Below, piece after piece: positions 10,784 to 42,608 of a stretch of DNA of 64,000 nucleotides. Numbering within the stretch: position 1 is the stretch's first letter; each line of letters starts with the position of its first letter. Below the pieces are notes generated by a model, which made no database searches, was not told the origin of the DNA, and saw only the letters and a list, made by a program, of their open reading frames with translations. The stretch covers positions 3,488,422 to 3,552,421 of the forward strand of contig NC_092678.1 of the NCBI RefSeq assembly GCF_964355755.1, written 5' to 3'. The stretch is from Antedon mediterranea (lineage: Eukaryota > Animalia > Echinodermata). Made by a program: the position numbers and the translations under genes.

Positions 10784-13136
10784 TTAAGGCATCTGGTCGC
10801 CTACAGGATCTAGATTACCTAAAAAAACAGTAATAATAATATTAATATCAAAATATTAAATATAGTTTTTTTTTTTATAGTTTTTTGCCCTTTCATCATG
10901 CCGGTGCCAGGTGGTAATTACCTGGTTCTTTAGCCGTATCCGGTGCCAGTTGCTCAGTCTTACACTCCCCTTTATGTTCTACAAAGAACTCTGGTGTGTT
11001 GTTTCTGCACATTACGGCTTCAAAGACGCATTGTGAAACATAGGTTTCCCCGTCACTACCACACACGGCGTCGTTTTCGAGTGGACATGATGTCCTACAG
11101 GTCGGTTTTGCTGGCTCAGGAGTGATTTTTTGTGTAGTTTTAGTTTTTTCCGTTGCCCTCTTGGCATTTGTCACCATTGCGCCGGTTGTGACGACTGTAG
11201 TAAATAAATGTCACCATTAACTTCAAATTTTCCCTCACTACCATTGATAATATTAATAGATCATATTGCATAGTTGTATACTGGTATACTTAACTTAATG
11301 CAATATTACCAACATCGTCACCCGTATCTCCTTCGATGTTACCTTTATTAACGTAACGTATTTACGTAATAAATAAACGTGACGTCTATGTTCTTTCCAA
11401 TTCATGCATGGTAGGTTGCCCACTCATTAATTTTTGTTTCCCTTCATGTCAATATAGATGATCATATTTTATTTCTAGATACTTATACTAGTGATAAAAA
11501 AGGCCACCTGATTTGATTAGTTAAAATAGGCCCCAAAACAGAACGAAATACAGATAATTATGAACATCGCAATATATTAGCACAATATATCTTAAGGTAG
11601 AAAAGTTTTACCATTAACTTGAGGTGAGTTTACACCAGGGGCTGGGCCACTTCCAGCGTCTCCTCTATCAACTTGACGTGGCGTAGAGGTATCACGAACG
11701 GTGGTGGTTTCACGGACTGTGGTGGTCGTTTCAACTGGCATAGCTATAGTTGTTGTCGCAAGAGGGATTGTAGCAGTAGCAATCTCTACTGGAGGATCTG
11801 TCATGGATGACTCTGCTACTAGACTGCTAGGTCCCACCACTGAAGATAAAGATGACAACTCTACCAAAGAAAAAACATATTATTAAATCACCGTTTAAAG
11901 ATGCTTTGTCCTTTAAAATATGATATAGATGAATAAACTCGAATAAACTTGAATAGGCCATTTTGCAGTGTTAATAAAGTTATTCATTCCCATCTCAAGA
12001 TGTTTTAATGCACTTGTTGGTCAAAGTATTAACCATGTTAAGTTCCCATCTTTACAGAACCTCCTCAGACATTGATCAAGTATATTAGTGCATTATATAT
12101 TTTTCAAACTATACCAACCACTTGTAAAACTGCTTTCATTGCTTTCACTAGAGTCTTCCTCCGAACTACTGTCGTCCTCGTTTTGTACATTGTCTGCAAA
12201 TTTGTTCTCTCTCTCGTAATTTTCGTTTTCATTGTCGTTCACTGTCAAAGAAAATATACGTCTTATATTATAATTGCATTACAATAACAACAAAAACAAC
12301 AACATTATGTAAAATCTGTAAAAAGTCCCCTTACCAACCAAGATTCGAACTTTTTAAGAACTATATGTAAATGTCCTTATCACTGCGGATGTCATGTTCT
12401 AGCTCAATTGATTACATGATTTATTTTATTTATTTTTATTTTATGTCTTTAGGCAATGTGGCCAAGGATTTCCAATAGTGAATTAATCACTGTCCTATCA
12501 GATAGGTGGTAATCCCCCTGATACAGGGGCTATTGTGTGAACCAGTTCACCGGGGTAACCCCCTACTCTTTTTCGAATAATGAACTGGGTTCTTTAAAGT
12601 ACACACAGGTTATAACTATGTACACTGGACCTACGGTTTATAGTCCTTATCCGAGAAGACTTGTTCCACCACCAGAACTAGGAGCGAGTCGGCCTCGAAC
12701 CCTTGCCGATGTTGTTGTTGGCTCTTTAGGTACGGTAAACGGCGATATACATACGGTAAACGAATGATATATTTTAATTGTACGCACCTACTGCACAGAT
12801 ATTACATATTTTGTACTTCTCCTGATGATTGTGCCAAATTTATAGTATTTAATAGTGTGACTATTTAGATCTATAGTTTTAATTATTTAGAATGTACAAT
12901 ATATTTTATATAAAATGATAGCCAAATGAAAAGAAACTTCTAACATTTAATGAACACTGTACTTCGTACTTGTGTGATATTCTTTCAGTAATTGAATAGT
13001 ATAGTTTTTACTTACTTTGACCATATCGGAGAAAATGCTGAAAGGGGTTGTTATTGTACCTCTGGTAGTAAGGGGCAGCTGAGGTCATGGTTATAAAGGC
13101 TAGGCCTAGTACAACAAGCATACTTAATTTCGTCAT
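10784..13136 (-). CDS. Gene F: secreted acidic/mucin-like protein with one Kazal domain, about 266 aa
   Basis: Exons 13136-13016 (MTKLSMLVVLGLAFITMTSAAPYYQRY..), 12241-12119 (EDDSSSEEDSSES), 11860-11612 (Thr-rich, RGD), 11194-10922 (CRTSCPLENDAVCGSDGETYVSQC..), 10818-10784 (TAA). Phase 1; 801 nt. 5'UTR exon donor near 13590. Confidence 0.82.
12420..12705 (-). mobile_element. tRNA-derived SINE with a conserved central domain, in a gene F intron
   Basis: B-box-like GGGTTCGAGGCC on the minus strand near 12691-12702 and an A-rich tail near 12420. The core CCCCTACTCTTTTTCGAA..GGGTTCTTTAA..ACCTACGGTTTATAGTCCTTATCCGAGAAGAC resembles Nin/Deu-type invertebrate SINEs (recalled, not searched). Confidence 0.6.
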
Positions 13137-18215: not shown

Positions 18216-21200
18216 TCATCGTTGATTTTCAAACCTGCTGGGAGATTCGATTGTATCAACGCATGGACCCAAGTAGGCTACACATAGGTCTGGATTATTA
18301 CGTCTACAACCAGCGGCCTTTAGATGGCACTCTGACAGATATGTCTTGCCATCAGTACCGCATACTTTTGAAGTGGAGTTTCCAGTTGGACATCGTTCGA
18401 CACACTTTTTTCTTTTGTCTGTAAATTAAAGATAGTAGACAGAAAAGATAATAATAGTATTAATAAATATCGTTTTTAAATCAATAAATTGAAGTGAGCG
18501 TTATAAACGTAAGCCCGATACTTCATTCTCTTTTGGATGCCTGTTTTTGGGGATTACCCTTTCCTGTTCGGGAAATTACCCTTTCCTGTTCGGGAAATTA
18601 CCTAATATTACCTACCTTACCTATTAAGATATCTATCATCTCTATAGAGTTTGAGCTCCATGATTTCAGAAAGAAAGTCTTTTATTCAATAATTGGAATT
18701 ATATTTGAGTAATTAATATTAATTATCCAATGAAATAAATGATTACTATTAATAAATATATTTAAAAAAACATTTACTTTTTCCTGTTGTGGATGGCTGG
18801 CTGGATCTTTCGTTGGTTCCAACAGGTTGTTCGTCTCCTGTTCTGGGCTGCTCGGCTCGTTCTTTCTTTTGCTTGGTTTGGCGATTTCTATTAGTGGGCG
18901 TTCCTTGAGCTTTAGTATAATAATTCATTTTTTTGTCACATTAATGAAGCAAATATATTAATAAATGGTCAAAACGTATACATTTTGCAAAATTTTGAGT
19001 GGAAATCGTTAACATTTATGACATAACCTGTAATTACCCTTTTCATATTGCACTGGAATAATAACTAAATATAATTTATAGGACGAGATTGGAAGACCTA
19101 CATCACGAACAAACACATCCACAGAGACGACAAACCTACCTCTATTTAGACGAGCAGATGGACCAACTGTAGGCACTACGTCATTTCTACATTGTCCTGC
19201 ATAAGCCACACTCAGTTCGATGATGTTTAGTTTGCAAGCAAATATTTCCAAAACACACGCGGATGGATAGTCGTTTCCATCAGTACCACACACACGGGAG
19301 TTACGGGATTGAAGTGGACAGCTATCTCTACAAACACTTTTCGCTGCTGTATGTGAGTAACATAATAATTATTATTTTATGTAATGTATTAATAAAGTTC
19401 AACCATACTAAAATCCTTTCGAAATGTGAAGATACTAGGTATGGATTCAAAATCCTGCATGAGAAGGGTTTGGCATAGTTATAAATATTTAAATAATAAT
19501 AATACCAATAATAGTAATAATAAAGAAAGTCAAACATACGTCTTGTGGGTTCAGCCTCCACTGGGCCATTTATTGGAGGGTCTGGCATTACAGGAGCAAT
19601 ATCTACTTCACAAGGTCCTAAATATGCTATCTTGGTATTTGAATTTTTTCTGCATGCCACAGCTTTCAAAATACAGCGCGAGACATAGGAAATACCATCC
19701 GTACCACATACTTTATCGTCAACTAATGGACAATTATCTGGACATTCGTTGTTGTCTGCAAAAGAAATGTTCAATAATCATAATAATAATATTTCGGCCA
19801 AAATCATTGGTGAGTGAATAGGTACAAAATATGAATATTTTAAAATAAAATATAAATATCTCATTACAAAGTATAAATGTATAAAACAACAGTTACCCCC
19901 ATTAGCTACAGTTGCAGTACCATCTGGGCCTCTACTTGGATGTACTTCGTCACCATTATGAGTAGTTGGTCGTGTACCTGTGTTAGAGTTAGTACTTTTG
20001 CCTGAAACCAATGTTTTGGTTCCACTCTCTGGATGGGCTGAACTGCTACTGGGCGTCACTAAACCCTCATTACCATTATCTGGGTACATTCCTTCTGTTT
20101 CCATACCATATGGATTAGTATCTCTATCAGTTTCACTACCGTCCTCATGATTTCTTCCAACTCCACTCTGTGAATTTCCTCTATTATCTGGATAGTTTTT
20201 GTCATTAGTATATGGGTTCTCTGTTGAGTCTCCATCTGGATGGAATGATTCACTCTTAGTATTCCTGTCTGGGTATGGTTCTAGGCCAGTTCTTCTATTT
20301 GGGTATATACCGGAACCAGTAATTGGATAACCAGTTGGTGATGCTCTGTCTAAGTATCCTTTCCTTTGTGAGCCGCTAACTGGATACATACCTGTACCAC
20401 CGGTAGGTCTCAATCGACTGACATAACCATTCCTATTTAAGCCACTTTCTGGAAATGTTTGTGGATTTTCATCCATTGTTCTACTATCGGGCTTGTACCC
20501 ATCTGGTCTAGTACCGGTTTTACTACCAGGATAATTTTCATTTCCTCCTGTACCACTACCTGGATATCCTCCTTGTTGCGTCCAACCTGGTGTAGGATAG
20601 GTTCCTGTACCACTGCTTGGAAAACCATCACTGCCAGTACCGCGATCTGGATTTACATTAGTACCAGTTCCACTACTTGGATAATTTCCATTTCCTCCTG
20701 TACCACTACCTGGATGTCCTCCTGTTTGCGTCCCACCAGATGTAGGAAAAGTTCCTGTTCCACTACTTTCTGGATATCTTCCTGAAGTACCACTGTTTGG
20801 ATAACCATCACTGCCAGTACCGCGATCTGGATTTACATTAGTACCGGTTCCACTACTTGGATAATTTCCATTTCCTCCTGCACCACTACCTGGATATCCT
20901 CCTGTTCGCGTCCCACCAGAGCTAGGATAAGTTCCTGTTCCACTACTTTCTGGATATCTTCCTGAAGTACCACTGTTTGGATAACCATTACTGCCGATAC
21001 CGCGGTCTGGATTTACATTAGTACTCGTTTCACTACCAGGATAATTTTCATTTCTTCCTGTACCACTACCTGGATATCCTCCTTGTTGTGTCCCACCTGG
21101 TGTAGGATAGGTTCCTGTACCACTGCTTGGATAACCATCACCGCCGGTACCGCTATCTGGATTTTCATTAGTACCGGTTTCACTACCAGGATAATTTCCA

Positions 21201-24200
21201 TTTCTTCCTGTACCACTACCTGGATATCCTCCTTGTTGCGTCCCACCAGTGTTAGGATAAGTTCCAGTTCCACTGTTTTCTGGATTTACATTAGTACGGG
21301 TTTCACTACCAGGATAATTTCCATTTCCTCCTATTCCACTACCTGGATATCCTCCTTGTTGCGTCCAACCTCGTGTAGGATAGGTTCCTGTACCACTGCT
21401 TGGAAAACCATCACTGCCAGTACCGCGATCTGGATTTACATTAGTACCGGTTTCACTACCAGGATAATTTCCATTTCTTCCTGTACCACTACCTGGATAT
21501 CCTCCTTGTTGCGTCCCACCAGTGTTAGGATAAGTTCCAGTTCCACTGTTTTCTGGATTTACATTAGTACGGGTTTCACTACCAGGATAATTTCCATTTC
21601 CTCCTATTCCACTACCTGGATATCCTCCTTGTTGCGTCCAACCTCGTGTAGGATAGGTTCCTGTACCACTGCTTGGAAAACCATCACTGCCAGTACCGCG
21701 ATCTGGATTTACATTAGTACCAGTTCCACTACTTGGATAATTTCCATTTCCTCCTGTACCACTACCTGGATGTCCTCCTGTTCGCGTCCCACCAGATGTA
21801 GGAAAAGTTCCTGTTCCACTACTTTCTGGATATCTTCCTGAAGTACCACTGTTTGGATAACCATCACTGCCAGTACCGCGATCTGGATTTACATTAGTAC
21901 CGGTTCCACTACTTGGATAATTTCCATTTCCTCCTGCACCACTACCTGGATATCCTCCTGTTCGCGTCCCACCAGAGCTAGGATAAGTTCCTGTTCCACT
22001 ACTTTCTGGATATCTTCCTGAAGTACCACTGTTTGGATAACCATTACTGCCGATACCGCGATCTGGATTTACATTAGTACTCGTTTCACTACCAGGATAA
22101 TTTTCATTTCTTCCTGTACCACTACCTGGATATCCTCCTTGTTGCGTCCCACCTGGTGTAGGATAGGTTCCTGTACCACTGCTTGAATAACCATCACCGC
22201 CAGTACCGCGATCTGGATTTTCATTAGTACCGGTTTCAATACCAGGATAATTTCCATTTCTTCCTGTACCACTACCTGGATATCCTCCTTGTTGCGTCCC
22301 ACCAGTGTTAGGATAAGTTCCAGTTCCACTGTTTTCTGGATTTACTTTAGTACGGGTTTCACTACCAGGATAATTTCCATTTCCTCCTATACCACTACCT
22401 GGATATCCTCCTGTTCGCGTCCCACCAGATGTGGGATAAGTTCCAGTTCCACTGTTTCCGGGATTTACATTAGTACCGGTTTCACTACCAGGATAATTTC
22501 CATTTCCTCCTGTACCACTACCTGGATATCCTCCTGTTCGCGTCCCACCAGATGTAGGATAAGTTCCTGTTCCACTACTTTCTGGATGTCGTCCAGATGT
22601 ACCACTGTTTGGATAAGCATCACTGCCGATAACGCGATCTGGATTTACATTAGTACTCGTTTCACTACCAGGATAATTTTCATTTCTTCCTGTACCAGTA
22701 CCTGGATATCCTCCTTGTTGCGTCCCACCTGGTGTAGGATAGGTTCCTGTACCACTGCTTGGATAACCATCATCGCCAGTACCGCGATCTGGATTTTCAT
22801 TAGTACTGGTTTCACTACCAGGATAATTTCCATTTCTTCCTGTACCACTACCTGGATATCCTCCTTGTTGCGTCCCACCAGTGTTAGGATAAGTTCCAGT
22901 TCCACTGTTTTCTGGATTTTCATTAGTGCTGGTTTCACTACCAGGATAATTTCCATTTCTTCCTGTACCACTACCTGGATATACTCCTTGTTGCGTCCCA
23001 CCAGTGTTAGGATAAGTTCCTGTTCCACTAGTTTCTGAATTTACATTAGTACCGGTTTCACTACCTGGATAATTTCCATTTCCTTCTGAACCACTACCTG
23101 GATATCCTCCTTGTTGCCTCCCACCTGGTGTAGGATAGGTTCCTGTACCACTGCTTGGATAACGATCACTGCCAGTACCGCGATCTGGATTTACATTAGT
23201 ACCCGTTTCACTACCAGGATAATTTCCATTTCCTTCTGGACCACTACCTGGATATCCTCCGGTTAGCGTCCCACCAGATGTAGGATAAGTTCCAGTTCCA
23301 CTGTTTCCGGGATTTATTTTAGTACCGGTTTCACTACCAGGATAATTTCCATTTCCTCCTGTACCACTACCTGAATATCCTCCTGTTCGCGTCCCACCAG
23401 ATGTAGAATAAGTTCCTGTTCCACTACTTTCTGGATGTCGTCCAGATGTACCACTGTTTGGATAACCATTACTGCCGATACCGCGATCTGGATTTACATT
23501 AGTACTCGTTTCACTACCAGGATAATTTTCATTTCTTCCTGTACCACTACCTGGATATCCTCCTTGTTGCGTTCCACCTGGTGTAGGATAGGTTCCTGTA
23601 CCACTGCTTGGATAACCATCAACGCCAGTACCGCGATCTGGATTTTCATTAGTACCGGTTTCACTACCAGGATAATTTCCATTTCTTCCTGTACCACTAC
23701 CTGGATATCCTCCTTGTTGCGTCCCACCAGTGTTAGGATAAGTTCCAGTTCCACTGTTTTCTGGATTTACATTAGTACGGGTTTCACTACCAGGATAATT
23801 TCCATTTCCTCCTATACCACTACCTGGATATCCTCCTGTTCGCGTCCCACCAGATGTGGGATAAGTTCCAGTTCCACTGTTTTCGGGATTTACATTAGTA
23901 CCGGTTTCACTACCAGGATAATTTCCATTTCCTCTTGTACCACTACCTGGATATCCTCCTGTTCGCGTCCCACCAGATGTAGGATAAGTTCCTGTTCCAC
24001 TACTTTCTGGATGTCGTCCAGATGTACCACTGTTTGGATAACCATTACTGCCGATACCGCGATCTGGATTTACATTAGTACTCGTTTCACTACCAGGATA
24101 ATTTTCATTTCTTCCTGTACCACTACCTGGATATCCTCCTTGTTGCGTCCCACCTGGTGTAGGATAGGTTCCTGTACCACTGCTTGGATAACCATCACCG

Positions 24201-27200
24201 CCAGTACCGCGATCTGGATTTTCATTAGTACCGGTTTCACTACCAGGATAATTTCCATTTCTTCCTGTACCACTACCTGGATATCCTCCTTGTTGCGTCC
24301 TACCAGTGTTAGGATAAGTTCCAGTTCCACTGTTTTCTGGATTCACATTAGTACGGGTTTCACTACCAGGATAATTTCCATTTCCTCCTATACCACTACC
24401 TGGATATCCTCCTGTTCGCGTCCCACCAGATGTGGGATAAGTTCCAGTTCCACTGTTTCCGGGAGTTACATTAGTACCGGTTTCACTACCAGGATAATTT
24501 CCATTTCCTCCTGTACCACTACCTGGATATCCTCCTGTTCGCGTCCCACCAGATGTAGGATAAGTTCCTGTTCCACTACTTTCTGGATGTCGTCCAGATG
24601 TACCACTGTTTGGATAAGCATCACTGCCGATACCGCGATCTGGATTTACATTAGTACTCGTTTCACTACCAGGATAATTTTCATTTCTTCCTGTACCACT
24701 ACCTGGATATCCTCCTTGTTGCGTCCCACCTGGTGTAGGATAGGTTCCTGTACCACTGCTTGGATAACCATCACTGCCAATACCGCGATCTGGATTTTCA
24801 TTAGTACCGGTTTCACTACCAGGATAATTTCCATTTCTTCCTGTACCACTACCTGGATATCCTCCTTGTTGCGTCCCACCAGTGTTAGGATAAGTTCCAG
24901 TTCCACTGTTTTCTGGATTTACATTAGTACGGGTTTCACTACCAGGATAATTTCCATTTCCTCCTATACCACTACCTGGATATCCTCCTGTTCGCGTCCC
25001 ACCAGACGTGGGATAAGTTCCAGTTCCACTGTTTCCGGGATTTACATTAGTACCGGTTTCACTACCAGGATAATTTCCATTTCCTCCTGTACCACTACCT
25101 GGATATCCTCCTGTTCGCGTCCCACCAGATGTAGGATAAGTTCCTGTTCCACTACTTTCTGGATGTCGTCCAGATGTACCACTGTTTGGATAAGCATCAC
25201 TGCCGATACCGCGATCTGGATTTACATTAGTACTCGTTTCACTACCAGGATAATTTTCATTTCTTCCTGTACCACTACCTGGATATCCTCCTTGTTGCGT
25301 CCCACCTGGTGTAGGATAGGTTCCTGTACCACTGCTTGGATAACCATCACCGCCAGTACCGCGATCTGGATTTTCATTAGTACCGGTTTCACTACCAGGA
25401 TAATTTCCATTTCTTCCTGTACCACTACCTGGATATCCTCCTTGTTGCGTCCTACCAGTGTTAGGATAAGTTACAGTTCCACTGTTTTCTGGATTCACAT
25501 TAGTACGGGTTTCACTACCAGGATAATTTCCATTTCCTCCTATACCACTACCTGGATATCCTCCTGTTCGCGTCCCACCAGATGTGGGATAAGTTCCAGT
25601 TCCACTGTTTCCGGGAGTTACATTAGTACCGGTTTCACTACCAGGATAATTTCCATTTCCTCCTGTACCACTACCTGGATATCCTCCTGTTCGCGTCCCA
25701 CCAGATGTAGGATAAGTTCCTGTTCCACTACTTTCTGGATGTCGTCCAGATGTACCACTGTTTGGATAACCATTACTGCCGATACCTCGATCTGGATTTA
25801 CATTAGTACTCGTTTCACTACCAGGATAATTTTCATTTCTTCCTGTACCACTACCTGGATATCCTCCATGTTGCGTACCACCTGGTGTAGGATAGGTTCC
25901 TGTACCACTGCTTGGATAACCATCACCGCCAGTACCGCGATCTGGATTTTCATTAGTACCGGTTTCACTACCAGGATAATTTTCATTTCTTCCTGTACCA
26001 CTACCTGGATATCCTCCTTGTTGCGTCCCACCAGTGTTAGGATAAGTTCCAGTTCCACTGTTTTCTGGATTTACATTAGTACGGGTTTCACTACCAGGAT
26101 AATTTCCACTTCCTCCTATACCACTACCTGGATATCCTCCTGTTCGCGTCCCACCAGATGTGGGATAAGTTCCAGTTCCACTGTTTCCGGGATTTACATT
26201 AGTACCGGTTTCACTACCAGGATAATTTCCATTTCCTCCTGTACCACTACCTGGATATCCTCCTGTTCGCGTCCCACCAGATGTAGGATAAGTTCCTGTT
26301 CCACTACTTTCTGGATGTCGTCCAGATGTACCACTGTTTGGATAACCATCACTGCCGATACCGCGATCTGGATTTACATTAGTACTCGTTTCACTACCAG
26401 GATAATTTTCATTTTTTCCTGTACCACTACCTGGATATCCTCCTTGTTGCGTCCCACCTGGTGTAGGATAGGTTCCTGTACCACTGCTTGGATAACCATC
26501 ACCGCCAGTACCGCGATCTGGATTTTCATTAGTACCGGTTTCACTACCAGGATAATTTCCATTTCTTCCTATACCACTACCTGGATATCCTCCTTGTTGC
26601 GTCCCACCAGTGTTAGGATAAGTTCCTGTTCCACTACTATCTGGATTTTCATTAGTACCGGTTTCACTACCAGGATAATTTCCATTTCCACCTGAACCAC
26701 TACCTGGATATCCTCCTTGTTGCGTCCCACCTGGTGTAGGATAGGTTCCTGTACCACTGCTTGGATAACGATCACTGCCAGTACCGCGATCTGGATTTAC
26801 ATTAGTACCCGTTTCACTACCAGGATAATTTCCTTTTCCTTCTGGACCACTACGTGGGTATCCTCCTGTTCGCGTCCCACCAGATGTGGGATAAGTTCCA
26901 GTTCCACTGTTTCCGGGATTTACATTAGTACCGGTTTCACTACCAGGATAATTTCCATTTTCCCCTGTACCACCACCTGGATATCCTTCTGTTCGCGTCA
27001 CACCAGATGTAGGATAAGTTCCTGTTCCACTACTTTCTGGATATCGTCCAGATGTACCACTGTTTGGATAACCATCACTGCCGGTACCGTGATCTGGATT
27101 TACATTAGTACTCGTTTCACTACCAGGATAATTTTCATTTCCTCCTATACCACTACCTGGATATCCTCCTTGTTGCGTCCCACCTGGTGTAAGATAGGTT

Positions 27201-30200
27201 CCTGTACCACTGCTTGGATAACCATCACTGCCAGTACCGCGATCTGGATTTTCATTAGTACCGGTTTCACTAACAGGATAATTTCCATTTTTTCCTGTAC
27301 CACTACCTGGATATCCTCCTTGTTGCGTCCCACCAGTGTTAGGATAAGTTCCTGTTCCACTAGTTTCTGAATTTACATTAGTACCGGTTTCACTACCTGG
27401 ATAATTTCCATTTCCTTCTGAACCACTACCTGGATATCCTCCTTGTTGCGTCTCACCTGGTGTTGGATAAGTTCCAGTTCCACTGTTTCCAGGATTTACA
27501 TTAGTACCGGTTTCACTACCAGGATAATTTCCATTTCCTCTTGTACCACTACCTGGATATCCTCCTGTTCGCGTCCCACCAGATGTAGGATAAGTTCCTG
27601 TTCCACTACTTTCTGGATGTCGTCCAGATGTACCACTGTTTGGATAACCATTACTGCCGATACCGCGATCTGGATTTACATTAGTACTCGTTTCACTACC
27701 AGGATAATTTTCATTTCTTCCTGTACTACTACCTGGATATCCTCTTTGTTGCGTCCCACCTGGTGTAGGATAGGTTCCTGTACCACTGCTTGGATAACCA
27801 TCACCGCCAGTACCACCGCGATCTGGATTTTCATTAGTACCGGTTTCACTACCAGGATAATTTCCATTTCTTCCTGTACCACTACCTGGATATCCTCCTT
27901 GTTGCGTCCCACCAGTGTTAGGATAGGTTCCAGTTCCACTGTTTTCTTGATTCACATTAGTACGGGTTTCACTACCAGGATAATTTCCATTTCCTCCTAT
28001 ACCACTACCTGGATATCCTCCTGTTCGCGTCCCACCAGATGTGGGATAAGTTCCAGTTCCACTGTTTCCGGGATTTATATTAGTACCGGTTTCACTACCA
28101 GGATAATTTCCATTTCCTCCTGTACCACTACCTGGATATCCTCCTGTTCGCGTCCCACCAGATGTAGGATAAGTTCCTGTTCCACTACTTTCTGGATATC
28201 GTCCAGATGTACCACTGTTTGGATAACCATCACTGCCGGTACCGTGATCTGGATTTACATTAGTACTCGTTTCACTACCAGGATAATTTTCATTTCTTCC
28301 TGTACCACTACCTGGATATCCTTGTTGCGTCCCACCTGGTGTAGGATAGGTTCCTGTACCACTGCTTGGATAACCATCACTGCCAATACCGCGATCTGGA
28401 TTTTCATTAGTACCGGTTTCACTAACAGGATAATTTCCATTTCTTCCTGTACCACTACCTGGATATCCTCCTTGTTGCGTCCCACCAGTGTTAGGATAAG
28501 TTCCTGTTCCACTAGTTTCTGAATTTACATTAGTACCGGTTTCACTACCTGGATAATTTCCATTTCCTTCTGGACCACTACCTGGATATCCTCCGGTTGG
28601 CGTCCCACCAGATGTGGGATAAGTTCCAGTTCCACTGTTTCCTGGATTTACATTAGTACCGGTTTCACTAATAGGATAATTTCCATTTCCTCCTCTACCA
28701 CTACCTGGATATCCTCTTGTTCGCGTCCCACCGGATGTGGGATAAGTTCCAGTTCCACTGTTTCCGGGATTTACATTAGTACCGGTTTCACTAATAGGAT
28801 AATTTCCATTTCCTCCTCTACCACTACCTGGATATCCTCCTGTTCGCGTCCCACCGGATGTGGGATAAGTTCCAGTTCCACTGTTTCCGGGATTTACATT
28901 AGTACCGGTTTCACTAATAGGATAATTTCCATTTCCTCCTCTACCACTACCTGGATATCCTTCTGTTCGCGTCCCACCAGATGTAGGATAAGTTCCTGTT
29001 CCACTACTTTCTGGATATCGTCCAGATGTACCACTGTTTGGATAACCATCACTGCCGGTACCGTGATCTGGATTTACATTAGTACTCCTCTCACTACCAG
29101 GATAATTTTCATTTCTTCCTGTACCACTACCTGGATATCCTCCTTGTTGCGTCCCACCTGGTGTAGGATAGGTTCCTGTACCACTGCTTGGATAACCATC
29201 ACTGCCAGTACCGCGATCTGGATTTTCATTTGTACCGGTTTCACTACCAGGATAATTTCCATTTCTTCCTGTACCACTACCTGGATATCCTCCTTGTTGC
29301 GTCCCACCAGTGTTAGGATAAGTTCCTGTTCCACTAGTTTTTGAATTTACATTAGTACCGGTTTCACTACCTGGATAATTTCCATTTCCTTCTGAACCAC
29401 TACCTGGATATCCTCCTTGTTGCGTCCCACCTGGTGTAGGATATGTTCCTGTACCACTGCTTGGATAACGATCACTGCCAGTACCGCGATCTGGATTTAC
29501 ATTAGTACCCGTTTCACTACCAGGATAATTTCCATTTCCTTCTGGACCACTACCTGGATATCCTCCTGTTCGCGTCCCACCAGATGTAGGATAAGTTCCT
29601 GTTCCACTACTTTCTGGATGTCGTCCAGATGTACCACTGTTTGGATAACCATCACTGCCGATACCGCGATCTGGATTTACATTAGTACTCGTTTCACTAC
29701 CAGGATAATTTTCATTTCTTCCTGTACCACTACCTGGATATCCTCCTTGTTGCGTCCCACCTGGTGTAGGATAGGTTCCTGTACCACTGCTTGGATAACC
29801 ATCACCGCCAGTACCGCGATCTGGATTTTCATTAGTACCGGTTTCACTACCAGGATAATTTCCATTTCTTCCTATACCACTACCTGGATATCCTCCTTGT
29901 TGCGTCCCACCAGTGTTAGGATAAGTTCCTGTTCCACTACTATCTGGATTTTCATTAGTACCGGTTTCACTACCAGGATAATTTCCATTTCCACCTGAAC
30001 CACTACCTGGATATCCTTCTTGTTGCGTCCCACCTGGTGTAGGATAGGTTCCTGTACCACTGCTTGGATAACGATCACTGCCAGTACCGCGATCTGGATT
30101 TACATTAGTACCCGTTTCACTACCAGGATAATTTCCTTTTCCTTCTGGACCACTACGTGGGTATCCTCCTGTTCGCGTCCCACCGGATGTGGGATAAGTT

Positions 30201-33200
30201 CCAGTTCCACTGTTTCCGGGATTTACATTAGTACCGGTTTCACTACCAGGATAATTTCCATTTTCCCCTGTACCACCACCTGGATATCCTTCTGTTCGCG
30301 TCACACCAGATGTAGGATAAGTTCCTGTTCCACTACTTTCTGGATATCGTCCAGATGTACCACTGTTTGGATAACCATCACTGCCGGTACCGTGATCTGG
30401 ATTTACATTAGTACTCGTTTCACTACCAGGATAATTTTCATTTCCTCCTATACCACTACCTGGATATCCTCCTTGTTGCGTCCCACCTGGTGTAGGATAG
30501 GTTCCTGTACCACTGCTTGGATAACCATCACTGCCAGTACCGCGATCTGGATTTTCATTAGTACCGGTTTCACTAACAGGATAATTTCCATTTCTTCCTG
30601 TACCACTACCTGGATATCCTCCTTGTTGCGTCCCACCAGTGTTAGGATAAGTTCCTGTTCCACTAGTTTCTGAATTTACATTAGTACCGGTTTCACTACC
30701 TGGATAATTTCCATTTCCTTCTGAACCACTACCTGGATATCCTCCTTGTTGCGTCTCACCTGGTGTTGGATAAGTTCCAGTTCCACTGTTTCCGGGATTT
30801 ACATTAGTACCGGTTTCACTACCAGGATAATTTCCATTTCCTCCTCTACCACTACCTGGATATCCTTCTGTTCGCGTCCCACCAGATGTAGGATAAGTTC
30901 CTGTTCCACTACTTTCTGGATATCGTCTAGATGTACCACTGTTTGGATAACCATCACTGCCGGTACCGTGATCTGGATTTACATTAGTACTCCTCTCACT
31001 ACCAGGATAATTTTCATTTCTTCCTGTACCACTACCTGAATATCCTCCTTGTTGCGTCCCACCTGGTGTAGGATAGGTTCCTGTACCACTGCTTGGAAAA
31101 CCATCACTGCCAGTACCGCGATCTGGATTTTCATTTGTACCGGTTTCACTATCAGGATAATTTCCATTTCTTCCTGTACCACTACCTGGATATCCTCCTT
31201 GTTGCGTCCCACCAGTGTTAGGATAAGTTCCTGTTCCACTAGTTTTTGAATTTACATTAGTACCGGTTTCACTACCTGGATAATTTCCATTTCCTTCTGA
31301 ACCACTACCTGGATATCCTCCTTGTTGCGTCCCACCTGGTGTAGGATATGTTCCTGTACCACTGCTTGGATAACGATCACTGCCAGTACCGCGATCTGGA
31401 TTTACATTAGTACCCGTTTCACTACCAGGATAATTTCCATTTCCTTCTGGACCACTACCTGGATATCCTCCGGTTGGCGCCCCACCAGATAGATAAGTTC
31501 CAGTTCCACTGTTTTCTGGATTTACATTAGTACGGGTTTCACTACCAGGATAATTTCCATTTCCTCCTATACCACTACCTGGATATCCTCCTGGTCGCGT
31601 CCCACCAGATGTGGGATAAGTTCCAGTTCCACTGTTTCCGGGATTTACATTAGTACTGGTTTCACTACCAGGATAATTTCCATTTCCTCCTGTACCACTA
31701 CCTGGATATCCTCCTGTTCGCGTCCCACCAGATGTAGGATAAGTTCCTGTCCCACTGCTTTCTGGATGTCGTCCAGATGTACCACTCTTTGGATAACCAT
31801 CACTGCCGATACCGCGATCTGGATTTACATTAGTACTCGTTTCACTACCAGGATAATGTTCATTTCCTTCTGAACCACTACCTGAATATCCTCCTTCTAG
31901 CGTCCCACCTGGTGTAGGATAGGTTCCTGTACCACTGCTTGGATAACTATCACCGCCAGTACCGCTATCTGGATTTAAATTGGTACCGGTTTCACTACCA
32001 GGATAATTTCCGTTTCTTGCTGTAACACTTCCTGGATATCCTCCTTGTTCCGTCCCACCAGTGTTAGTATAAGTTCCAGTTCTACTGTTTTCTGGATATC
32101 CTCCAGCTGTACCATTGTTAGGATAACCATCACTGCCAGTACTGCGATCTACATTAATACCCGTTTCACTACCAGGATAATTTCCATTTCCTCCTGTACC
32201 ACTACCTGGATATCCTCCTTGTTGCGTCCCACCAGATTTAGGATAGGTTCCTGTACCACTATTTGGATAACCATCACTGCCAGTACCGCGATCTACATTA
32301 ATACCCGTTTCACTACCAGGATAATTTCCATTTCCTCCTGTACCAGTACCTGGATATCCTCCTTGTTGCGTCCCACCAGATGTAGGATTGGTTCCTGTAC
32401 CACTATTTGGATATCCATTACTGCCAGTACCGCGATCGGGATTTACATTAATACCTGTTTCACTAACTGGATAATTTCCATTTTCTCTTGTACCACTACC
32501 TGGATATTCTCCGGTTCGAGTCCCACCAGAGTTAGGATATGTTCCATTTCCATTGTTTTCTGGATATCGTCCAGTTGTACCACTGTTAGGATAACCATCA
32601 CTGCCAGTACTGCGATCTGGATTTACATTAGTACCCGTTTCACTACCAGGATAATTTCCGTTTCTTACTGTACCACTACCTGGATATCGTCCTTGTTGCG
32701 TCCCACCAGAGTTAGGATAAGTTCCAGTTCCACTGTTTTCTGGATATCGTCCAGCAGTACCACTGCTTTTATCACTGCCAGTACCGCGATCTGGAGTGAC
32801 GTTAGTACCCGTTTCACTACCAGGATATTTTCCGTTTCTTACTGTACCACTATCTGTTGGATATCCTCCTTGTTGCGTCCCACCTGAGTTAGGATAAATT
32901 CCAGTACCGCTGCTTTCTGGATATCGTCCAGCTGTACCACTGTTTGGATAACCATCACTGCCAGTACCGCGATCTGAGTTTACATTGGTACCGGTTTCAC
33001 TACCAGGATAATTTCCATTTCTTGCTCTACCACTTCCTGGGTATCCTCCTTGTTGCGTCCCACCTGAGTTAGGATAAGTTCCAGTTCCACTGTTTTCTGG
33101 ATATCGTCCAGCAGTACCACTGCTTGGGTAGCTATCACTGCCAGTACCGCGATCTGGATTTACGTTAGTACCCGTTTCACTACCAGGATAATTTCCGTTT

Positions 33201-36200
33201 CTTGCTGTACCACTTCCTGAATATCCAGTTCCACGGTTTTCTGGATATCGTCCAGATCTACCACTGTTTGGATAACCATCACTGCCAGTACTGCGATCAG
33301 GATTTATATTAGTACCCGTTTCACTACTAGGATAATTTCCATTTCCTCCTGTACCACTACCTGGATATCCTCCTTGTTGCGTCCCACCAGATGTAGGATA
33401 GGTTCCTGTACCACTATTTGGATAACCATCACTGCCAGTACCGCGATCTACATTAATACCCGTTTCACTACCAGGATAATTTCCATTTCCTTCTGTACCA
33501 CTACCTGGATATCCTCCTTGTTGCGTCCCACCAGATGTAGGATTGGTTCCTGTACCACTATTTGGATATCCATTACTGCCAGTACCGCGATCGGGATTTA
33601 TATTAATACCTGTTTCACTAACTGGATAATTTCCATTTTCTCCTGTACCACTACCTGGATATTCTCCGGTTCGAGTCCCACCAGAGTTAGGATATGTTCC
33701 ATTTCCATTGTTTTCTGGATATCGTCCAGATCTACCACTGTTTGGATAACCATCACTGCCAGTACTGCGATCAGGATTTATATTAGTACCCGTTTCACTA
33801 CCAGGATAGTTTCCATTTCCTCCTCCTGTACCACTACTTGGATATCCTCCCTGTTGCGTCCCACCTGAGTTAGGATAAGATCCAGTTCCACTGTTTCCGG
33901 GATATCGCCCAGCTGTAGCACTGCCAGGATAAGCATCGCTGCCAGTACCGTGATCTGGATTTACATTGATACCGGTTTCACCACCAGGATAGTTTTCCTT
34001 TCCTCCTGTACCACTACTTGGATATCCTCCTTGTTGCGTCCCATCTGAGTTAGGATAAGTTCCATTTCCACTGTTTCCGGGATATCGCCCAGCTGTACCA
34101 CTGTCAGGATAAGCATCGCTGCTAGTACCGCGATCTGGATTTACATTGGTACCGGTTTCACCACCATGATAGTTTCCATTTCCTCCTGTACCACTACCTG
34201 GATATCCTCCTTGTTGCGTCCCACCTGGTGTAGGATAGGTTCCTGTACCACTGCTTGGATAACGATCACTGCCAGTACCGCGATCTGGATTTACATTAGT
34301 ACCCGTTTCACTACCAGGATAATTTCCATTTCCTTCTGTACCACTACCTGGATATCCTCCGGTTCTCGTCCCACCAGATGTAGGATAAGTTCCAGTTCCA
34401 CTGTCAGGATAAGCATCGCTGCTAGTACCGCGATCTGGATTTACATTGGTACCGGTTTCACCACCATGATAGTTTCCATTTCCTCCTGTACCACTACCTG
34501 GATATCCTCCTTGTTGCGTCCCACCTGGTGTAGGATAGGTTCCTGTACCACTGCTTGGATAACGATCACTGCCAGTACCGCGATCTGGATTTACATTAGT
34601 ACCCGTTTCACTACCAGGATAATTTCCATTTCCTTCTGTACCACTACCTGGATATCCTCCGGTTCTCGTCCCACCAGATGTAGGATAAGTTCCAGTTCCA
34701 CTGTCAGGATAAGCATCGCTGCTAGTACCGCGATCTGGATTTACATTGGTACCGGTTTCACCACCATGATAGTTTCCATTTTCTCTTGTACCACTACCTG
34801 GATATTCTCCGGTTCGAGTCCCACCAGAGTTAGGATATGTTCCATTTCCATTGTTTTCTGGATATCGTCCAGTTGTACCACTGTTAGGATAACCATCACT
34901 GCCAGTACCGCGATCTGGATTTACATTAGTACCACTTTCACTACCAGGATAATTTCCGTTTCTTGCTGTACCGCTTCCTGGATATCTTCCTTGTTGCGTC
35001 CCACCATCAGAGTTAGGATATGATCCAGTTCCACTGTTTTCTGGATCTCCTCTTGGTAGCGACCCTCCAGAGCTAGGGTAAGAATTGCGTCCAGTTGTCG
35101 TACCACTATTTGGGTAAGTGCCTTTATATATCTTATGAATATTACAATCGGTATAGATTCCTCTTTCATGCTCCCTTTCTGAATGTGTTCTCTCGTTATC
35201 AGTTTTGTCAGCACTCTGACGGACTGGTGTGCTGCTATCAGTAGTATAAAAACGGCTTCTACTTGTTGAATATGTTGGTCTATCCCTACTATCCGGATTC
35301 ATGCCTTTACTTCTGTCTGTATAGTACCTCCTTAGAATACCACCGTCTTGATTTCCTCTATTTTCAACAGTGCCATCTACTGGATACAGTCCAGTACCCC
35401 TCTCTTTATTTGTGTTGGTACTAGTACCTCTTTCTGGGTAATATTTTGTTCTTGTGCCATCATTTTTCGGGAGGCTGCTATTTCGTTTGCCACCATTTTG
35501 TGATCCAGGTTCAGGAATATGAGTACCGAAATTGACATTGTCGCTATCTCGGCATAAATGCCAGCCTGGGAATAGATCTAATATAGTACGTCGAATATTT
35601 GAATTGTCAACAGTAGGACTGTCATTGTAAGTTCGTTCTCTTTGCTGTGTATAACCGGGGTTGACGTCTGTTGTTTGTTGTCGGGGGTAACCATCCATGC
35701 CACCAGACGAATAACCAACATTATAACCTTGTCTTTGGTCTGGATACTGGTTGTAATAGTTAGTGCCTGGATACCGATATTGATTTCCAGGATACATACC
35801 GGTGTTATAATATCCACCCGTGTTTGGTGACTGTTGGGGATACCATCCCCTTGGTGCTGATGTATAATATCTATTATTGTAAGAATCGCCATTATTTGCT
35901 GGATATCTCATTTCCCTTCCAGGATACCTTGCAGTGTCAGGTGTTCTTTGGTGAGAATAAAAGTCGTATCCACTAGGATAGGGACCGTAATTTGGTTGTG
36001 CTTCTCTGTATGGATACTGAGTTGTGCCAGGACCTGAATAGAAGCCAGTATTAGGTCCTGCTCTTCTTGGGTAGCCGTTTGCGTCACCTTGTGGGTATAA
36101 GCCAGTCCTACCTTGGGAATACGTTCCGAAGTTGGCTTGATCAGGCTGTGGATATGGTAAGAAACCTATTACTGGATACATGCCACCACTGCTGCTGCTA

Positions 36201-38626
36201 CTACTACTACTACTACTGCTGCTGCTACTACTACTGCTGCTGCTGCTACTACTGCTGCTGCTACCGTCTGCAGAGGTAGTTGTTGAAGTAGAATCTTTTT
36301 CGTTTTTATCACGAGGGACGTTATCACTTTGTGAAGATGATTTGTTTGGATCCTCGACTCCAGTAACTGGTTCTTGACGGAAATTTCTTTCATTTGTCAC
36401 AATCTGATTTCTTCTTTCATTTATATCAGGTAAAATTGGCTCATTTGTATCAGGTAAAATGGGCTCATTTGGATAAGTCTCGTCTCGTTCAGAAGGAATC
36501 TCTTGTTTTGGATTCGAATTGAAATTAGTACCCCTATCAGAATCCGTTGGTTGAAAAGAAGGTTGTTCTTTTCTTCTTGAAGGATCTTCCCGACCAACAT
36601 TTTTTTCATTTCCTTTGTTTGGATTTCCCCGAGTGTTTTCCTTGCCACCATTTCCACTGCGAGTAGGTCCAGGATTTTTCACAGGATTTTGTGGATCACT
36701 TGATGTAGGTCTATCTGTAATGTTTAATATTAAAGAATGATTGAAGATAAATAATTTAAAAGTATTGTACTACTTGTAATAATTTTCCTCGAATTTCATT
36801 CGCTTTTTTGAACAGAAAATACAGATGATACTCTTACTTGGTTTTTGAGCTATGTAGCGTGTTGTCTGCTCTCCGCTGTCGTCATCATTACTATCACCGC
36901 CAGTATTCTGTTTGGCAACTTCGCCATATTTAACTCCTGTCAATATACAATACCAAACATTGTAATTAATGGTATAAATTATGAAAAATAAGGTTTTATA
37001 CTGCATCTATTAATACGCTAGGTGGATAAAAGGATAGTAATAGTAATACCGTACCTCCACTTTCACCACTGTCATCGTCATCACCTTCTGTGTAAGCGAC
37101 GACACCAGTTCCTAAGGAAATACAAACTTCCAAATTAAAGGCTAACCAAACAAGTACACTGTATCATGTATATAAAAGGTAACAATACACAGGCAGACAA
37201 ATAAACATGTAGTAAAAATGAAGAATAAAAGGTAATTGTAATTATTAAAGTTGACGCACCTTTTCTGATTTCACCGCTATCGTCATCATCACCTTCAGCA
37301 AATTCCTGTTGTAATGTTCCTATAGAAATACAAACTTCCAAATTAAAGGCTAACCAAACAAGTACACTGTATCATGTATATAACATGTATACTTATACAA
37401 GATACTAAAGAAGAAGAAATGAAGAATAAAAGGAACTGTGACGCACCTGCTCTGATTTCACCGCTGTCGTCATCATCACCTTCTGTGTTAGTGACGACAC
37501 CATCAGCGAGTTCCTGTTTTAATGCTCCTAACGAAATTATAAAACTAAAGTTTAAACTGGAAAATATAATAATCATTTATATACAAATATTACAAAACAC
37601 AAACTAAACATAGACTTGAAGTTAAAAAATATTTTTAAAAATAAAAGCGAAAATGTACCGGTAGTTATATTATCATTATTAACGCACCTCCAGTTTTGAT
37701 TTCACCGCTATCATCGTCATCACCGTTTGTCAATGCAGCTCCAACACCGCCAATGAGTTCTTGTAGCAGTTCTTTTTCTTTTAAGGAAAGTAAAGTGAAG
37801 TTTATAATAACAGTTTTTATTATTACAGTTGCCTGACAGTGATGTTTTGTGATTTGGATTCTGGCAATTCCATTGTCGAATCATCAACAAAATTTATTTT
37901 ATATTATATTAAAAACTGTAATTAATAATGTATGTACTCATTATTATTTATGTAATCATAATACTATTATGGGATGGTATCGTATTTGTAAAGCGTTTTA
38001 TAATGACAACTGTCTGAAATGACAGTGGACTAATGCTGCATCATCTCCTTTCCTAATAGTCCATTTGTTTCGAACTCATGCAGTTGTATCTTACTTTGTG
38101 CATTTTCCCCGTACTTTAGCTTAATAATACCCCGAATATGTAGATATTGGTTATTGAAACATAACTATTAAAACTGTTTTGTGTTTACCATGTTCTTGAT
38201 TAAGTGCGTCAGGTTCAACTGTACCGCCTACCAATCGTGCGATTACAGATCCAATGCTTCCACCGCCACCACTATCATCATCATCATCATCTAAAGGAAA
38301 CATTTTTTTAACTTTCTTTCTTAAGATTCATTAAGTTTTTTAAACAACCCCACGAAAGAGAAAAAAAAAAGTTTTTTTAAACAAGTACCTCTTTTTTCAA
38401 CTAATTTTAAATATATGTTATTGACGCTCAAAGAGACGCGCACGTTCAAAAGCTGATAAAAACAGCATGACTTTTCTTTGCGTTAACTTGTTGTGTGTGT
38501 GTTATTGACGATAGTTAATATGTAAATGTCTCACTTACCACTTTCATGTCCAACAAGTTCTCTCCATGGCAATGATGTTACCTTCGTTGTAAGAACTACC
38601 AGTATTAATAAACTGCGCATGTGCAT
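18216..38626 (-). CDS. Gene E: giant secreted Gly/Ser/Thr/Tyr-Pro repeat protein with acidic DDDSG N-terminus and 3 C-terminal Kazal domains, about 6050 aa, 12 coding exons
   Basis: Exons 38626-38539 (MHMRSLLILVVLTTKVTSLPW.., signal-like), 38290-38189, 37777-37688, 37527-37447, 37319-37260, 37111-37055, 36936-36838, 36714-19897, 19755-19540 (Kazal), 19346-19140 (Kazal), 18909-18778, 18418-18216 (Kazal, TGA). All phase-1 GT-AG; total 18153 nt. A 5'UTR exon ends at the donor near 39040. Confidence 0.85.
19897..36714 (-). CDS. Gene E giant exon (16,818 nt, 5606 codons): poly-Ser, Tyr-rich block and GYPGSGTG-type repeat array
   Basis: Uninterrupted 5634-aa ORF in the track; acceptor tacag at 36715-36719 and donor gtaac at 19892-19896 keep phase 1 with the flanking exons. 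Confidence 0.93.
20520..35040 (-). repeat. Coding tandem array: 39-aa core SGTGTYPTSGGT(RT/QQ)GGYPGSGTG(G/R)N(G/E)NYPGSETGTN(V/E)NP in 123/150/180-bp variants forming a 576-bp higher-order repeat
   Basis: Shadow ORFs recur at 23494, 24070, 24646, 25222, 25798 and 26374 (576-bp steps); 41+41+50+60 aa = 192 aa. Confidence 0.95.
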
Positions 38627-39120
38627 CCCTGTGTGTTAACATTAAAATACTGATAGTTGAAAAGACATTCGGAGTGTTATTACCGCACTCAAACCCGTGC
38701 GTGCGTCCGTGCATATGTACAGCTCATAGTTTACGCGCATGACATTACTACCTGGCCCATTATTATTTTTTAAATATATAGTTTAAATACCGTATTAGGT
38801 AAATTCAGCAATACGTGTTGCGCAAAATTGCGGACCTGTTTTTATAACCGCTAACGCATTACTAACTTAAGACAACGATTGATACCTAATAATAAAAGTA
38901 TTTAAACAAATTAACTTATTTATAACAAGGTTAATATGTTTAACTGCTATAAGTAATATACACCTGCAAAGAATAATTTAATTTTAAAATTGCTATTATT
39001 ATTTTTATTAATAATACTAAATAAATTTAATATCGCTTACCGTGACACTGTGTTCCTTAATTGTGATGGAAGTTGTTGTCGACTTATTTTCTGTTTGACT
39101 AAAAAGTTTACAAACTCCAC

Positions 39121-39157
39121 TTTATACCCAGCAAGTTGGTCTAGGTAATGACGTCAT
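39121..39157 (-). promoter_or_regulatory. Gene E core promoter: TATAAA box plus palindromic CRE (ATGACGTCAT)
   Basis: Minus-strand TATAAA at 39121-39126 and TGACGTCA at 39149-39156, upstream of a short 5'UTR exon ending at a gtaag donor (39036-39040). Confidence 0.55.
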
Positions 39158-40869: not shown

Positions 40870-42608
40870 TTAAACGTCTGGTAGTTCAGTTGTGCCAATC
40901 TCTAAGATTTCAACAACAACCACCTCTTCCTCCATCGGTACTTCCGTTGCTTCTTCTTCTTCTATTACTTCCATTGATTCTTCTTCTTCAGGTATTTCCA
41001 CCACAGGTTCTGTTGGACGTTTCTTTTTCTTCGGAATGTCGTCAGGACATCTTCCAGAATGAGCAATCTCTAGTTCCGGAGCGACGCGGCAAGCCCGTCT
41101 TCGAACGGCGCACGCTGTCGTGTAAGTACGTCCGTCTGTCCCACAAACCTTTGACAACTTCGTTCCTGTTTCACATTTTTTCGGACAGTGCTTAACTTCA
41201 ACAACTAAAACACATAATATAACAAACTTTACAAATCCATAGAACAAGAAAAGTCAATCACAACAATTTAAAAACGGGTAATTTTGTCTGACCACCAATT
41301 CCTTAAATTTCGCTCGTTTTCAGTTATGACGTCGAAGGGACAAATGAGTTTAGTTCTGAAGTCATACTCTTCAAGGTAAATTCAAAGTGACTTAGAAGTT
41401 TAAAGTACTTTCATAAGAACAAGCAGTTTCTAAATTTAAACCTTTAGTGTGGTAATTATGTAACAGCAACATGAATAATAGTCCTGCTTCGAGCATATTG
41501 TTAGTTTTAAAATATTTAGATACTAGAATGAAATTTTTGAGTATTAAATACGCGCTTGCTTGTGTGGCGCATAGAGATATTATGTTCACTATAATATCTC
41601 TATGTGTGGAGTCACTTACCTCTGCATTTCCGGTCATGTGCTTTTTCCAGCATAGGCAAATTCATTTTACATTTGCGGCGAAGCAGATGACAGAGATGGC
41701 GATAGTTTCTATGGTCATTTCCACAAATAGGACCGATGCTGGTGGTATTATCTGGACATTTCCTAAGAAGCGATTGGCAATCTAAGTCCATCGGCTCAGC
41801 AGCTAGAATGTATACAATTTGAAACAGTTAATGAATATCATGAAACAAGTAATATTTTGAGTCAAACCATCTTAATTTATTTAAAAAAATATTCATTTTG
41901 AGAATAAATTAGATAATGTAAAAATATGTGTATGTAAACGCGTGGCTCTGCATAAACGGCGTCCCATAATATACGGCATGTCTGCTGCCACCTATAATTC
42001 ATATTGTGACATCGTTTCATTTTAACAACATCTTTATACAGGATTACACAATCAGGTAAAAGAAAACCTGTTTTGCATTGTGGTCCTTTCTTGAATACAA
42101 AAAAATCATGGAAAAAAAGTTTGTTTTGTGGAAAAAAAATGAGATCTGTATCTAGCTTTGAATGAAGTAATTGGTAATTGAATATGTATTTTCAGTTGGT
42201 AGGTTATTCCATATAACTTTGAAGGACGAGTTTATCTTACTAATGGTATAGTAGGGTATTGTTATATTGAATTATATTGTCAATATATATATATGTCAAT
42301 AACATGTAAACTGTATTACTTTAAATGTATGTGTATTGTTTCTGGGGTCTTGAGACAAGAAACTTGATTTCTTCTAGAGAAGACCCCAAATGTTGGCTTA
42401 TTACTATGTTTTCATTTAAATAATGTACACACCTGTATATTATACTGTATAATGCCATTGTTGAACAAATAAATGTTTTTTGAACTTGATCTCATTGACC
42501 ATAAATCATAAAATAACGAATGCCAAATAAGATATAATGAAACTTACCAATACTAATAACAAATGTTACAGATATAAGTAACAGAAGAATATTAGCGAAC
42601 GCCGCCAT
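40870..42608 (-). CDS. Gene D: secreted protein with 2 Kazal domains and a Glu-rich tail, about 192 aa
   Basis: Exons 42608-42548 (MAAFANILLLLISVTFVISI), 41802-41620 (DCQSLLRKCPDN..ICGNDHRNYRHLCHLLRRKC..HDRKC), 41204-40870 (Kazal plus EEEESMEVIEEEE, TAA); 579 nt. Confidence 0.82.

Follow-up and report, generated by a model that had tools for sequence, protein, structure and literature searches.

An array of short exons encoding a DDDSG motif in a predicted giant crinoid protein: candidate sites for glycosaminoglycan attachment

We analysed a window of 64,000 nucleotides from the crinoid Antedon mediterranea (contig NC_092678.1, positions 3,488,422 to 3,552,421, forward strand); all coordinates below refer to this window. 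It holds a cluster of multi-Kazal genes that lie on the same, minus strand (10899-62000), with 22 Kazal-type cores, mostly in phase-1 exons. Two neighbours upstream of the gene described here match the Anneissia japonica 'agrin-like' proteins XP_033105664.1 (62.0-58.2 kb) and XP_033105666.1 (54-49 kb) at 60-80% identity. The upstream Kazal gene has a Glu/Val-rich acidic tail at 40873-41000 (minus), and an ATG at 13136 (minus) opens a clear signal-peptide-like start, probably that of the next secreted gene, which would run toward the Kazal exon near 11100. Runs of Ser followed by runs of Glu, resembling casein-like FAM20C targets, occur in nearby open frames at about 46619 and 970 (minus).

Within this cluster, 11 coding exons (E1 to E11) were joined into a predicted model of 6,006 aa that has no internal stop and whose introns are all phase 1. 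Apart from the array E2-E7, which is listed further below, the model and its putative upstream region consist of the following features.

39097..39156, minus strand: putative core promoter, with a CRE-like palindrome (39156-39149), a TATA-like element (39126-39120) and an Inr-like element (39102-39097), placed by consensus match
39041..39100, minus strand: putative non-coding first exon, ending at a G/GTAAGC donor
38539..38628, minus strand: E1, with its acceptor at 38628, an ATG at 38626, a signal-peptide-like start and a phase-1 donor GTAAGT
19897..36714, minus strand: E8, a 16.8-kb open exon encoding about 5,600 aa of repeats
19540..19755, minus strand: E9, a Kazal domain (Pfam PF07648, E 1e-11)
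19140..19346, minus strand: E10, a Kazal domain (Pfam PF07648, E 6.6e-9)
18216..18418, minus strand: E11, a Kazal-pattern domain, recognised by its Cys pattern and by tblastn to Kazal proteins, and the stop codon

The putative promoter follows the usual definitions of CRE, TATA and Inr, and TATA-plus-Inr spacings turn up elsewhere too in this AT-rich window. In E1 an in-frame stop lies just upstream of the ATG, and the hydropathy reaches a 7-residue peak of 4.0 with a hydrophobic core at about residues 6-12; judged by hydropathy, E1 is a putative signal peptide and the protein is likely to be secreted. E1 as a continuation of the upstream Kazal gene was excluded, since a stop codon of its own closes that gene at about 40872, and no further phase-1 exons were found in introns 1-2 under the donor patterns tried. 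The mature head is of low complexity and 163 aa long, with a pI of 4.05 and a net charge of -33. It contains only one dibasic site, and a neuropeptide precursor with acidic spacers was rejected on this ground.

The long exon E8 is composed of Gly (26%), Thr (15%), Ser (11%), Pro (10%), Asn (10%) and Tyr (7.5%), with 0.6% Ala and 0.1% Cys. Its repeat units are 123, 150 and 180 nt long, with higher-order periods of 273 and 453 nt, and its first 500 codons gave no Pfam match. The Tyr content (7.5%) could allow cross-linking. A poly-Ser tract of about 27 codons lies at 36180-36268, and in the unique start of the exon (35703-36633) the sequencing runs differ from the window at six single bases, five of which alter the residue.

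The array between the putative signal peptide and E8 comprises six exons, each with one acidic Ser-Gly motif.

38290-38189, minus strand: E2, 102 nt, an Asp run followed by S-G-G, with no Glu at +2; the motif stands at the exon start
37777-37688, minus strand: E3, 90 nt, D4-S-G-E; an A-rich, atypical acceptor, followed 6 nt into the exon by another in-frame AG
37527-37447, minus strand: E4, 81 nt, D4-S-G-E; the full-length form of the E4/E5/E6 unit, its acceptor with a tandem AG
37319-37260, minus strand: E5, 60 nt, D4-S-G-E; seven internal codons of E4 are missing
37111-37055, minus strand: E6, 57 nt, D4-S-G-E; without the first seven codons of E4 and one final codon
36936-36838, minus strand: E7, 99 nt, D3-S-G-E; likely a copy, and the one that has diverged furthest

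All six predicted exons have AG/GT ends, are in phase 1-1 and have lengths divisible by three. An earlier note on this DNA had described six tandem microexons encoding DDDDDDSGG, GDDDDSGEI (three times), GDDDDSGES and NDDDSGEQ, three of them with a common donor; the lengths, the peptides and the donor G/GTGCGT, which is that of E3, E4 and E5, were all recovered as described. The name was dropped. Microexons are limited in the literature to 27-30 nt, or to 51 nt in wider usage (PMC8378409, PMC8042270, PMC6600660), and E2-E7, at 57-102 nt, exceed each of the limits of 27, 30 and 51 nt and are short exons by size class. DDDSG occurs six times in 36838-38290 and not once in the six frames of the rest of the window, whereas 2,000 order-2 Markov simulations gave a mean of 0.001 and a maximum of 1. 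The GC content is 0.40-0.51 in these exons and 0.21-0.30 in the introns, and intron read-through from E1 to E8 is ruled out by in-frame stops in seven of the seven introns.

The introns preserve a record of how the array arose. One block is present twice in identical form.

37117-37175, no strand assigned: 59-nt intron block, copy 1, at the 3' end of intron 5; its sequence is the same as that of 37325-37383
37325-37383, no strand assigned: 59-nt intron block, copy 2, at the 3' end of intron 4

This duplication had been reported in the earlier note and is real, with limits one base away from those given there. In both of two high-share DNA runs, which come from one sample, the block forms a 59-nt contig of its own at about double depth (18 against about 8, and 600 against about 280), and it is therefore no assembly artefact. 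In a run from another study, the greater part of E5 is present together with an unaltered intron 4. Introns 4 and 5 can be aligned end to end, with z 24, and an alignment between introns 3 and 5 gives z 5.9; for the other 19 of the 21 intron pairs the alignment was no better than that of their own shuffles. Because the introns align in this manner and E5 and E6 are in-frame-trimmed forms of E4, E3-E6 are tandem copies of one unit, made up of exon plus intron, of which E7 is probably an older copy. Judged by eye, the DNA of E2 and E3 shows no convincing alignment outside the motif, and E2 is for that reason probably of separate origin, so the recent duplication claimed for the whole array holds for E3-E6, probably extends to E7 and does not include E2. 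In the spacers of E3-E5 (37447-37777, minus) a short helix-like L-x-Q-E-L/F pattern repeats upstream of the motif and drifts faster than the core.

Among the copies, the motif and its surroundings have evolved very differently. In the D3-S-G-E core of E3-E7 all six variable sites are synonymous (p 0.0014 with a null of transitions only, 0.005 when CpG is allowed for, three columns being CpG). Over four exon-pair comparisons, 0 of 24 core codons changed their residue, with 12 silent differences, against 25 of 57 codons in the flanks; the pairs share exons and are not fully independent, and the Fisher p of 3e-5 is therefore optimistic. Since changes in the core are only synonymous and those in the flanks are not, the units are coding, and it is the motif, not the spacer, that selection has preserved. 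On this codon evidence the core is under purifying selection while the spacers drift, which is the strongest result of the analysis, and the codon pattern singles out exactly the six residues concerned. Two runs cover E4-E7 in full, and neither lists a single-base difference there.

We give almost no credence to the idea that the E2-E7 units are intronic repeats, dead exon copies or an assembly artefact. Three of three sequencing runs contain no spliced joints over 35300-37600, a stretch that takes in E4-E7 and the start of E8, and none of the 5 available runs is on record as RNA. In run X1, the one candidate for RNA, a 201-nt contig crosses intron 4 unspliced; this run behaves like DNA and says nothing on splicing, and its gaps in coverage carry no meaning. 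Against such a reading stand the wholly synonymous changes of the core, indels that are each a multiple of three, the intact GT-AG ends, the difference in GC between exons and introns, and the reproduction of the duplication in DNA sequencing runs.

The same symmetry of the exons has a bearing on how they are spliced. Regulated skipping of E2-E7, proposed in the earlier note, would produce tissue isoforms with different numbers of sites, whichever modification the serines receive, and we consider it improbable. Skipping keeps the frame in 64 of 64 combinations because the exons are symmetric, but no duplicate could persist without this, and in the cluster phase 1 prevails, the best-scoring acceptor phase being 1 for 18 of the 22 Kazal cores and tied for two more. 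The acceptors of E3-E6 score -0.2 to -4.6 bits in a crude matrix built from 18 acceptors and 13 donors of the window, while 17 of the 18 training acceptors, each left out in turn, reach at least 0.5; the training acceptors were picked partly for pyrimidine, which biases the matrix against E3-E6. These weak acceptors are a mild point for skipping and only a hint, whereas the donors of E3-E6 are strong (8.5-11 bits). Casein genes lose phosphoserine clusters through skipped short duplicated exons, but the cases described are allele-specific splice mutations, with no tissue regulation in that account (PMC12470106). A more elaborate proposal, which we think distinctly improbable, is a casein-like phase-1 exon system built independently in the crinoid, with one cassette per exon, in which combinatorial skipping (64 forms) would set the number of GAG chains or phosphoserines on a 600-kDa matrix protein and so tune its charge, as between skeleton and mutable ligament. 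If skipping is regulated, the array would be an invertebrate parallel to the exon modularity of caseins; if it is not, the array shows in a clear and ordinary way how symmetric exon duplication multiplies a motif.

The reading that we prefer, at a probability of about 0.45, is that E2-E7 form an acidic head whose DDDSG motifs are attachment sites for glycosaminoglycan (GAG), giving a proteoglycan head on a giant matrix protein. Common to all six exons is D-D-D-S-G and not S-x-E, E2 having S-G-G. Besides the serine, the one strict need of XT1 is a small residue at +1, so that Ser is followed by Gly or Ala; its cleft favours acidic residues at -2 to -4 and is described as tolerating uncharged residues at -1, and among the peptides it binds is one from syndecan-1 with Glu at +2 (PMC5992326). 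The motifs have Gly at +1 in six of six, Asp at -2 and -3 in six of six, and Asp at -4 in five. Position -1 is also Asp in all six, counter to the preference of XT1 for an uncharged or small residue, which is no strict rule. The GAG site of DMP1 has Asp at -1. Thus the earlier view of acidic-Ser-Gly as a xylosyltransferase site fits at +1, -2 and -3, and at -1 falls outside the published tolerance. In human CS sites most acidic residues lie on the N-terminal side, at positions -3 and -4 where the chains are highly sulfated (PMC10424144), and the acidic run of DDDSG has the same polarity, upstream of Ser. The nematode GAG motif is given as E/D-G/A-S-G, and occupancy is described as poorly predicted by motifs alone (PMC8418075). 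At least three acidic residues in -5 to -1 are found for only seven of the 313 Ser-Gly pairs in the model, all seven in the head. A review reports chondroitin and heparan synthases in echinoderms and sulfated chondroitin in crinoid mutable connective tissue (PMC10381214).

One serine here fits two enzymes, XT1 and FAM20C. The main rival, which we regard as unlikely, although by no means negligible, is that FAM20C phosphorylates the serines of the five S-G-E motifs, to give Asp4-pSer-Gly-Glu calcium-binding clusters on a skeletal-matrix protein; E2 might still bear a sugar chain in this case, or the two modifications could share the serines between them. The FAM20C motif is S-x-E, with Glu at +2 (PMC12650399), and the earlier assignment of it to these exons is correct for five of the six, E2 being the exception. 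Where present, this Glu has been retained across a GAA/GAG synonymous change, and S-x-E occurs five times in the 163-aa head against twice in the other ~5,800 aa. Sea-urchin phosphodontin has phosphorylated repeats, with the Ser of S-G-E as the probable site, and the sea-urchin tooth matrix is reported to contain a FAM20C-like protein as well as phosphorylated members of a Kazal set (PMC2830187). Secreted proteins with Kazal domains and acidic Gly-rich blocks are described from the sea-urchin tooth (PMC2614417), and Kazal/agrin-like proteins from the brittle-star skeleton (PMC4336488). Phosphorylation is also in keeping with the Ser-run-then-Glu clusters in two nearby open frames, and it better explains why Asp at -1 does no harm. 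It does not account for E2, where the +2 Glu is absent, nor for the invariant +1 Gly, which is no part of the FAM20C motif; and with its acidic run upstream and Ile-Lys/Arg after the Glu in three copies the array is unlike FAM20C clusters in the familiar casein-type layout. GAG is preferred here to phosphate, as the invariant Gly, the upstream acidic polarity and E2 are all explained by it. There is, finally, a small chance that the serines are bare and that the Asp runs themselves serve as calcium-binding or charge patches, as the acidity of the mature head would suggest; against this, the codons for Ser, Gly and Glu are just as constrained as those for Asp, which charge alone would not need. 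A proteoglycan-like or calcium-binding head, as the earlier note put it, agrees with the acidity and with motifs compatible with GAG or phosphate, Asp at -1 counting against GAG.

Exon duplication raised the number of sites, and the six exons are most likely kept together in the main transcript. On the GAG reading the protein would be secreted, its serines being xylosylated in the Golgi, and the chains would make a polyanionic proteoglycan of the head, which may bind calcium or partners of positive charge. A flexible scaffold may be provided by the Gly/Tyr repeat arm of E8, and the Kazal domains may bind partners or proteases. Such a molecule could have its role in the crinoid extracellular matrix, in skeleton, ligament or surface coat.

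Homology searches placed the gene near no described protein. For E8, no ortholog was found at E 0.001 with residues 19-620 among 1,084 long candidates or with residues 19-900 among 7,984 shorter candidates, and the first 900 aa gave no usable match in the Atlas; the Kazal query from E9 returned no ortholog in the best 150 of its 1,861 matches. One protein (P0072, 56%) looked promising but proved to be a brittle-star protein of other layout. DDDSG occurs in none of the 178 proteins retrieved by homology searches, and 117 pattern matches in metagenome contigs included none confirmed as a related locus. The ortholog queries were E8 and Kazal sequences, not the spliced head, and these blanks do not make the head unique. 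By title or abstract start, a literature search for DDDSG or the gene found nothing relevant, and no paper on a crinoid skeletal proteome with mention of Kazal proteins came up. The gene apparently encodes an undescribed giant crinoid protein and is a defined candidate crinoid matrix protein, its exon-encoded array of selected motifs being a variant on known kinds.

Agrin identity was excluded. The 'agrin-like' proteins XP_033105664.1 and XP_033105666.1 have Kazal domains, but they match the neighbours and not the gene with the acidic head, and P0001 and P0032 contain no DDDSG. In agrin, laminin EGF and laminin G domains come after the Kazal/follistatin series (PMC10381214), whereas the model ends after three Kazal exons and has neither. 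The closer parallels come from echinoderm skeletons, one Kazal protein being described from that of a sea star (PMC5460417). Five sea-urchin proteins (Glean3:17587-17590 and 22278) share with the crinoid protein an echinoderm source, predicted secretion and acidic Gly-rich low-complexity sequence, with Kazal domains in four of the five, and their consecutive numbers suggest a cluster, as here (PMC2614417). The likeness is one of described features. As described there, the urchin proteins have one or two Kazal domains near the N-terminus and alternating Ala/Pro-rich blocks (PMC2614417), while the crinoid protein, of about 6,000 aa, has three C-terminal Kazal domains and an exon-per-motif head; it shares the combination of Kazal domains with acidic Gly-rich blocks and lacks Ala/Pro-rich blocks, Ala being 0.6% in E8. 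Phosphodontin is likewise an echinoderm secreted protein with tandem S-G-E repeats behind a signal peptide, but it is made up of 35 contiguous Glu-rich repeats of 11-12 aa with no upstream Asp run, and the published description, as far as drawn on here, includes no Kazal domain (PMC2830187).

Among vertebrate genes, the alpha-s caseins and other SCPP genes resemble the array in having many short duplicated exons with Ser-modification motifs, and differ in that they have no sequence relation to it and that skipping is documented for alpha-s caseins (PMC12470106). The head also recalls the proteoglycan form of DMP1, an acidic matrix protein with a GAG chain on an N-terminal Ser-Gly, although DMP1 is a vertebrate protein with one main site and neither Kazal domains nor a Gly/Tyr repeat arm; it shows that a GAG chain and phosphate can occur on one acidic matrix protein (PMC4669440). 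Human genes are described as showing a general pattern in which disordered, symmetric exons that carry motifs are duplicated in tandem (PMC3632108). The crinoid array agrees with that pattern in the symmetry of its exons. Casein and SCPP genes have phase-0 introns, and SCPP genes descend from the vertebrate SCPP locus, whereas all introns of the crinoid model are phase 1.
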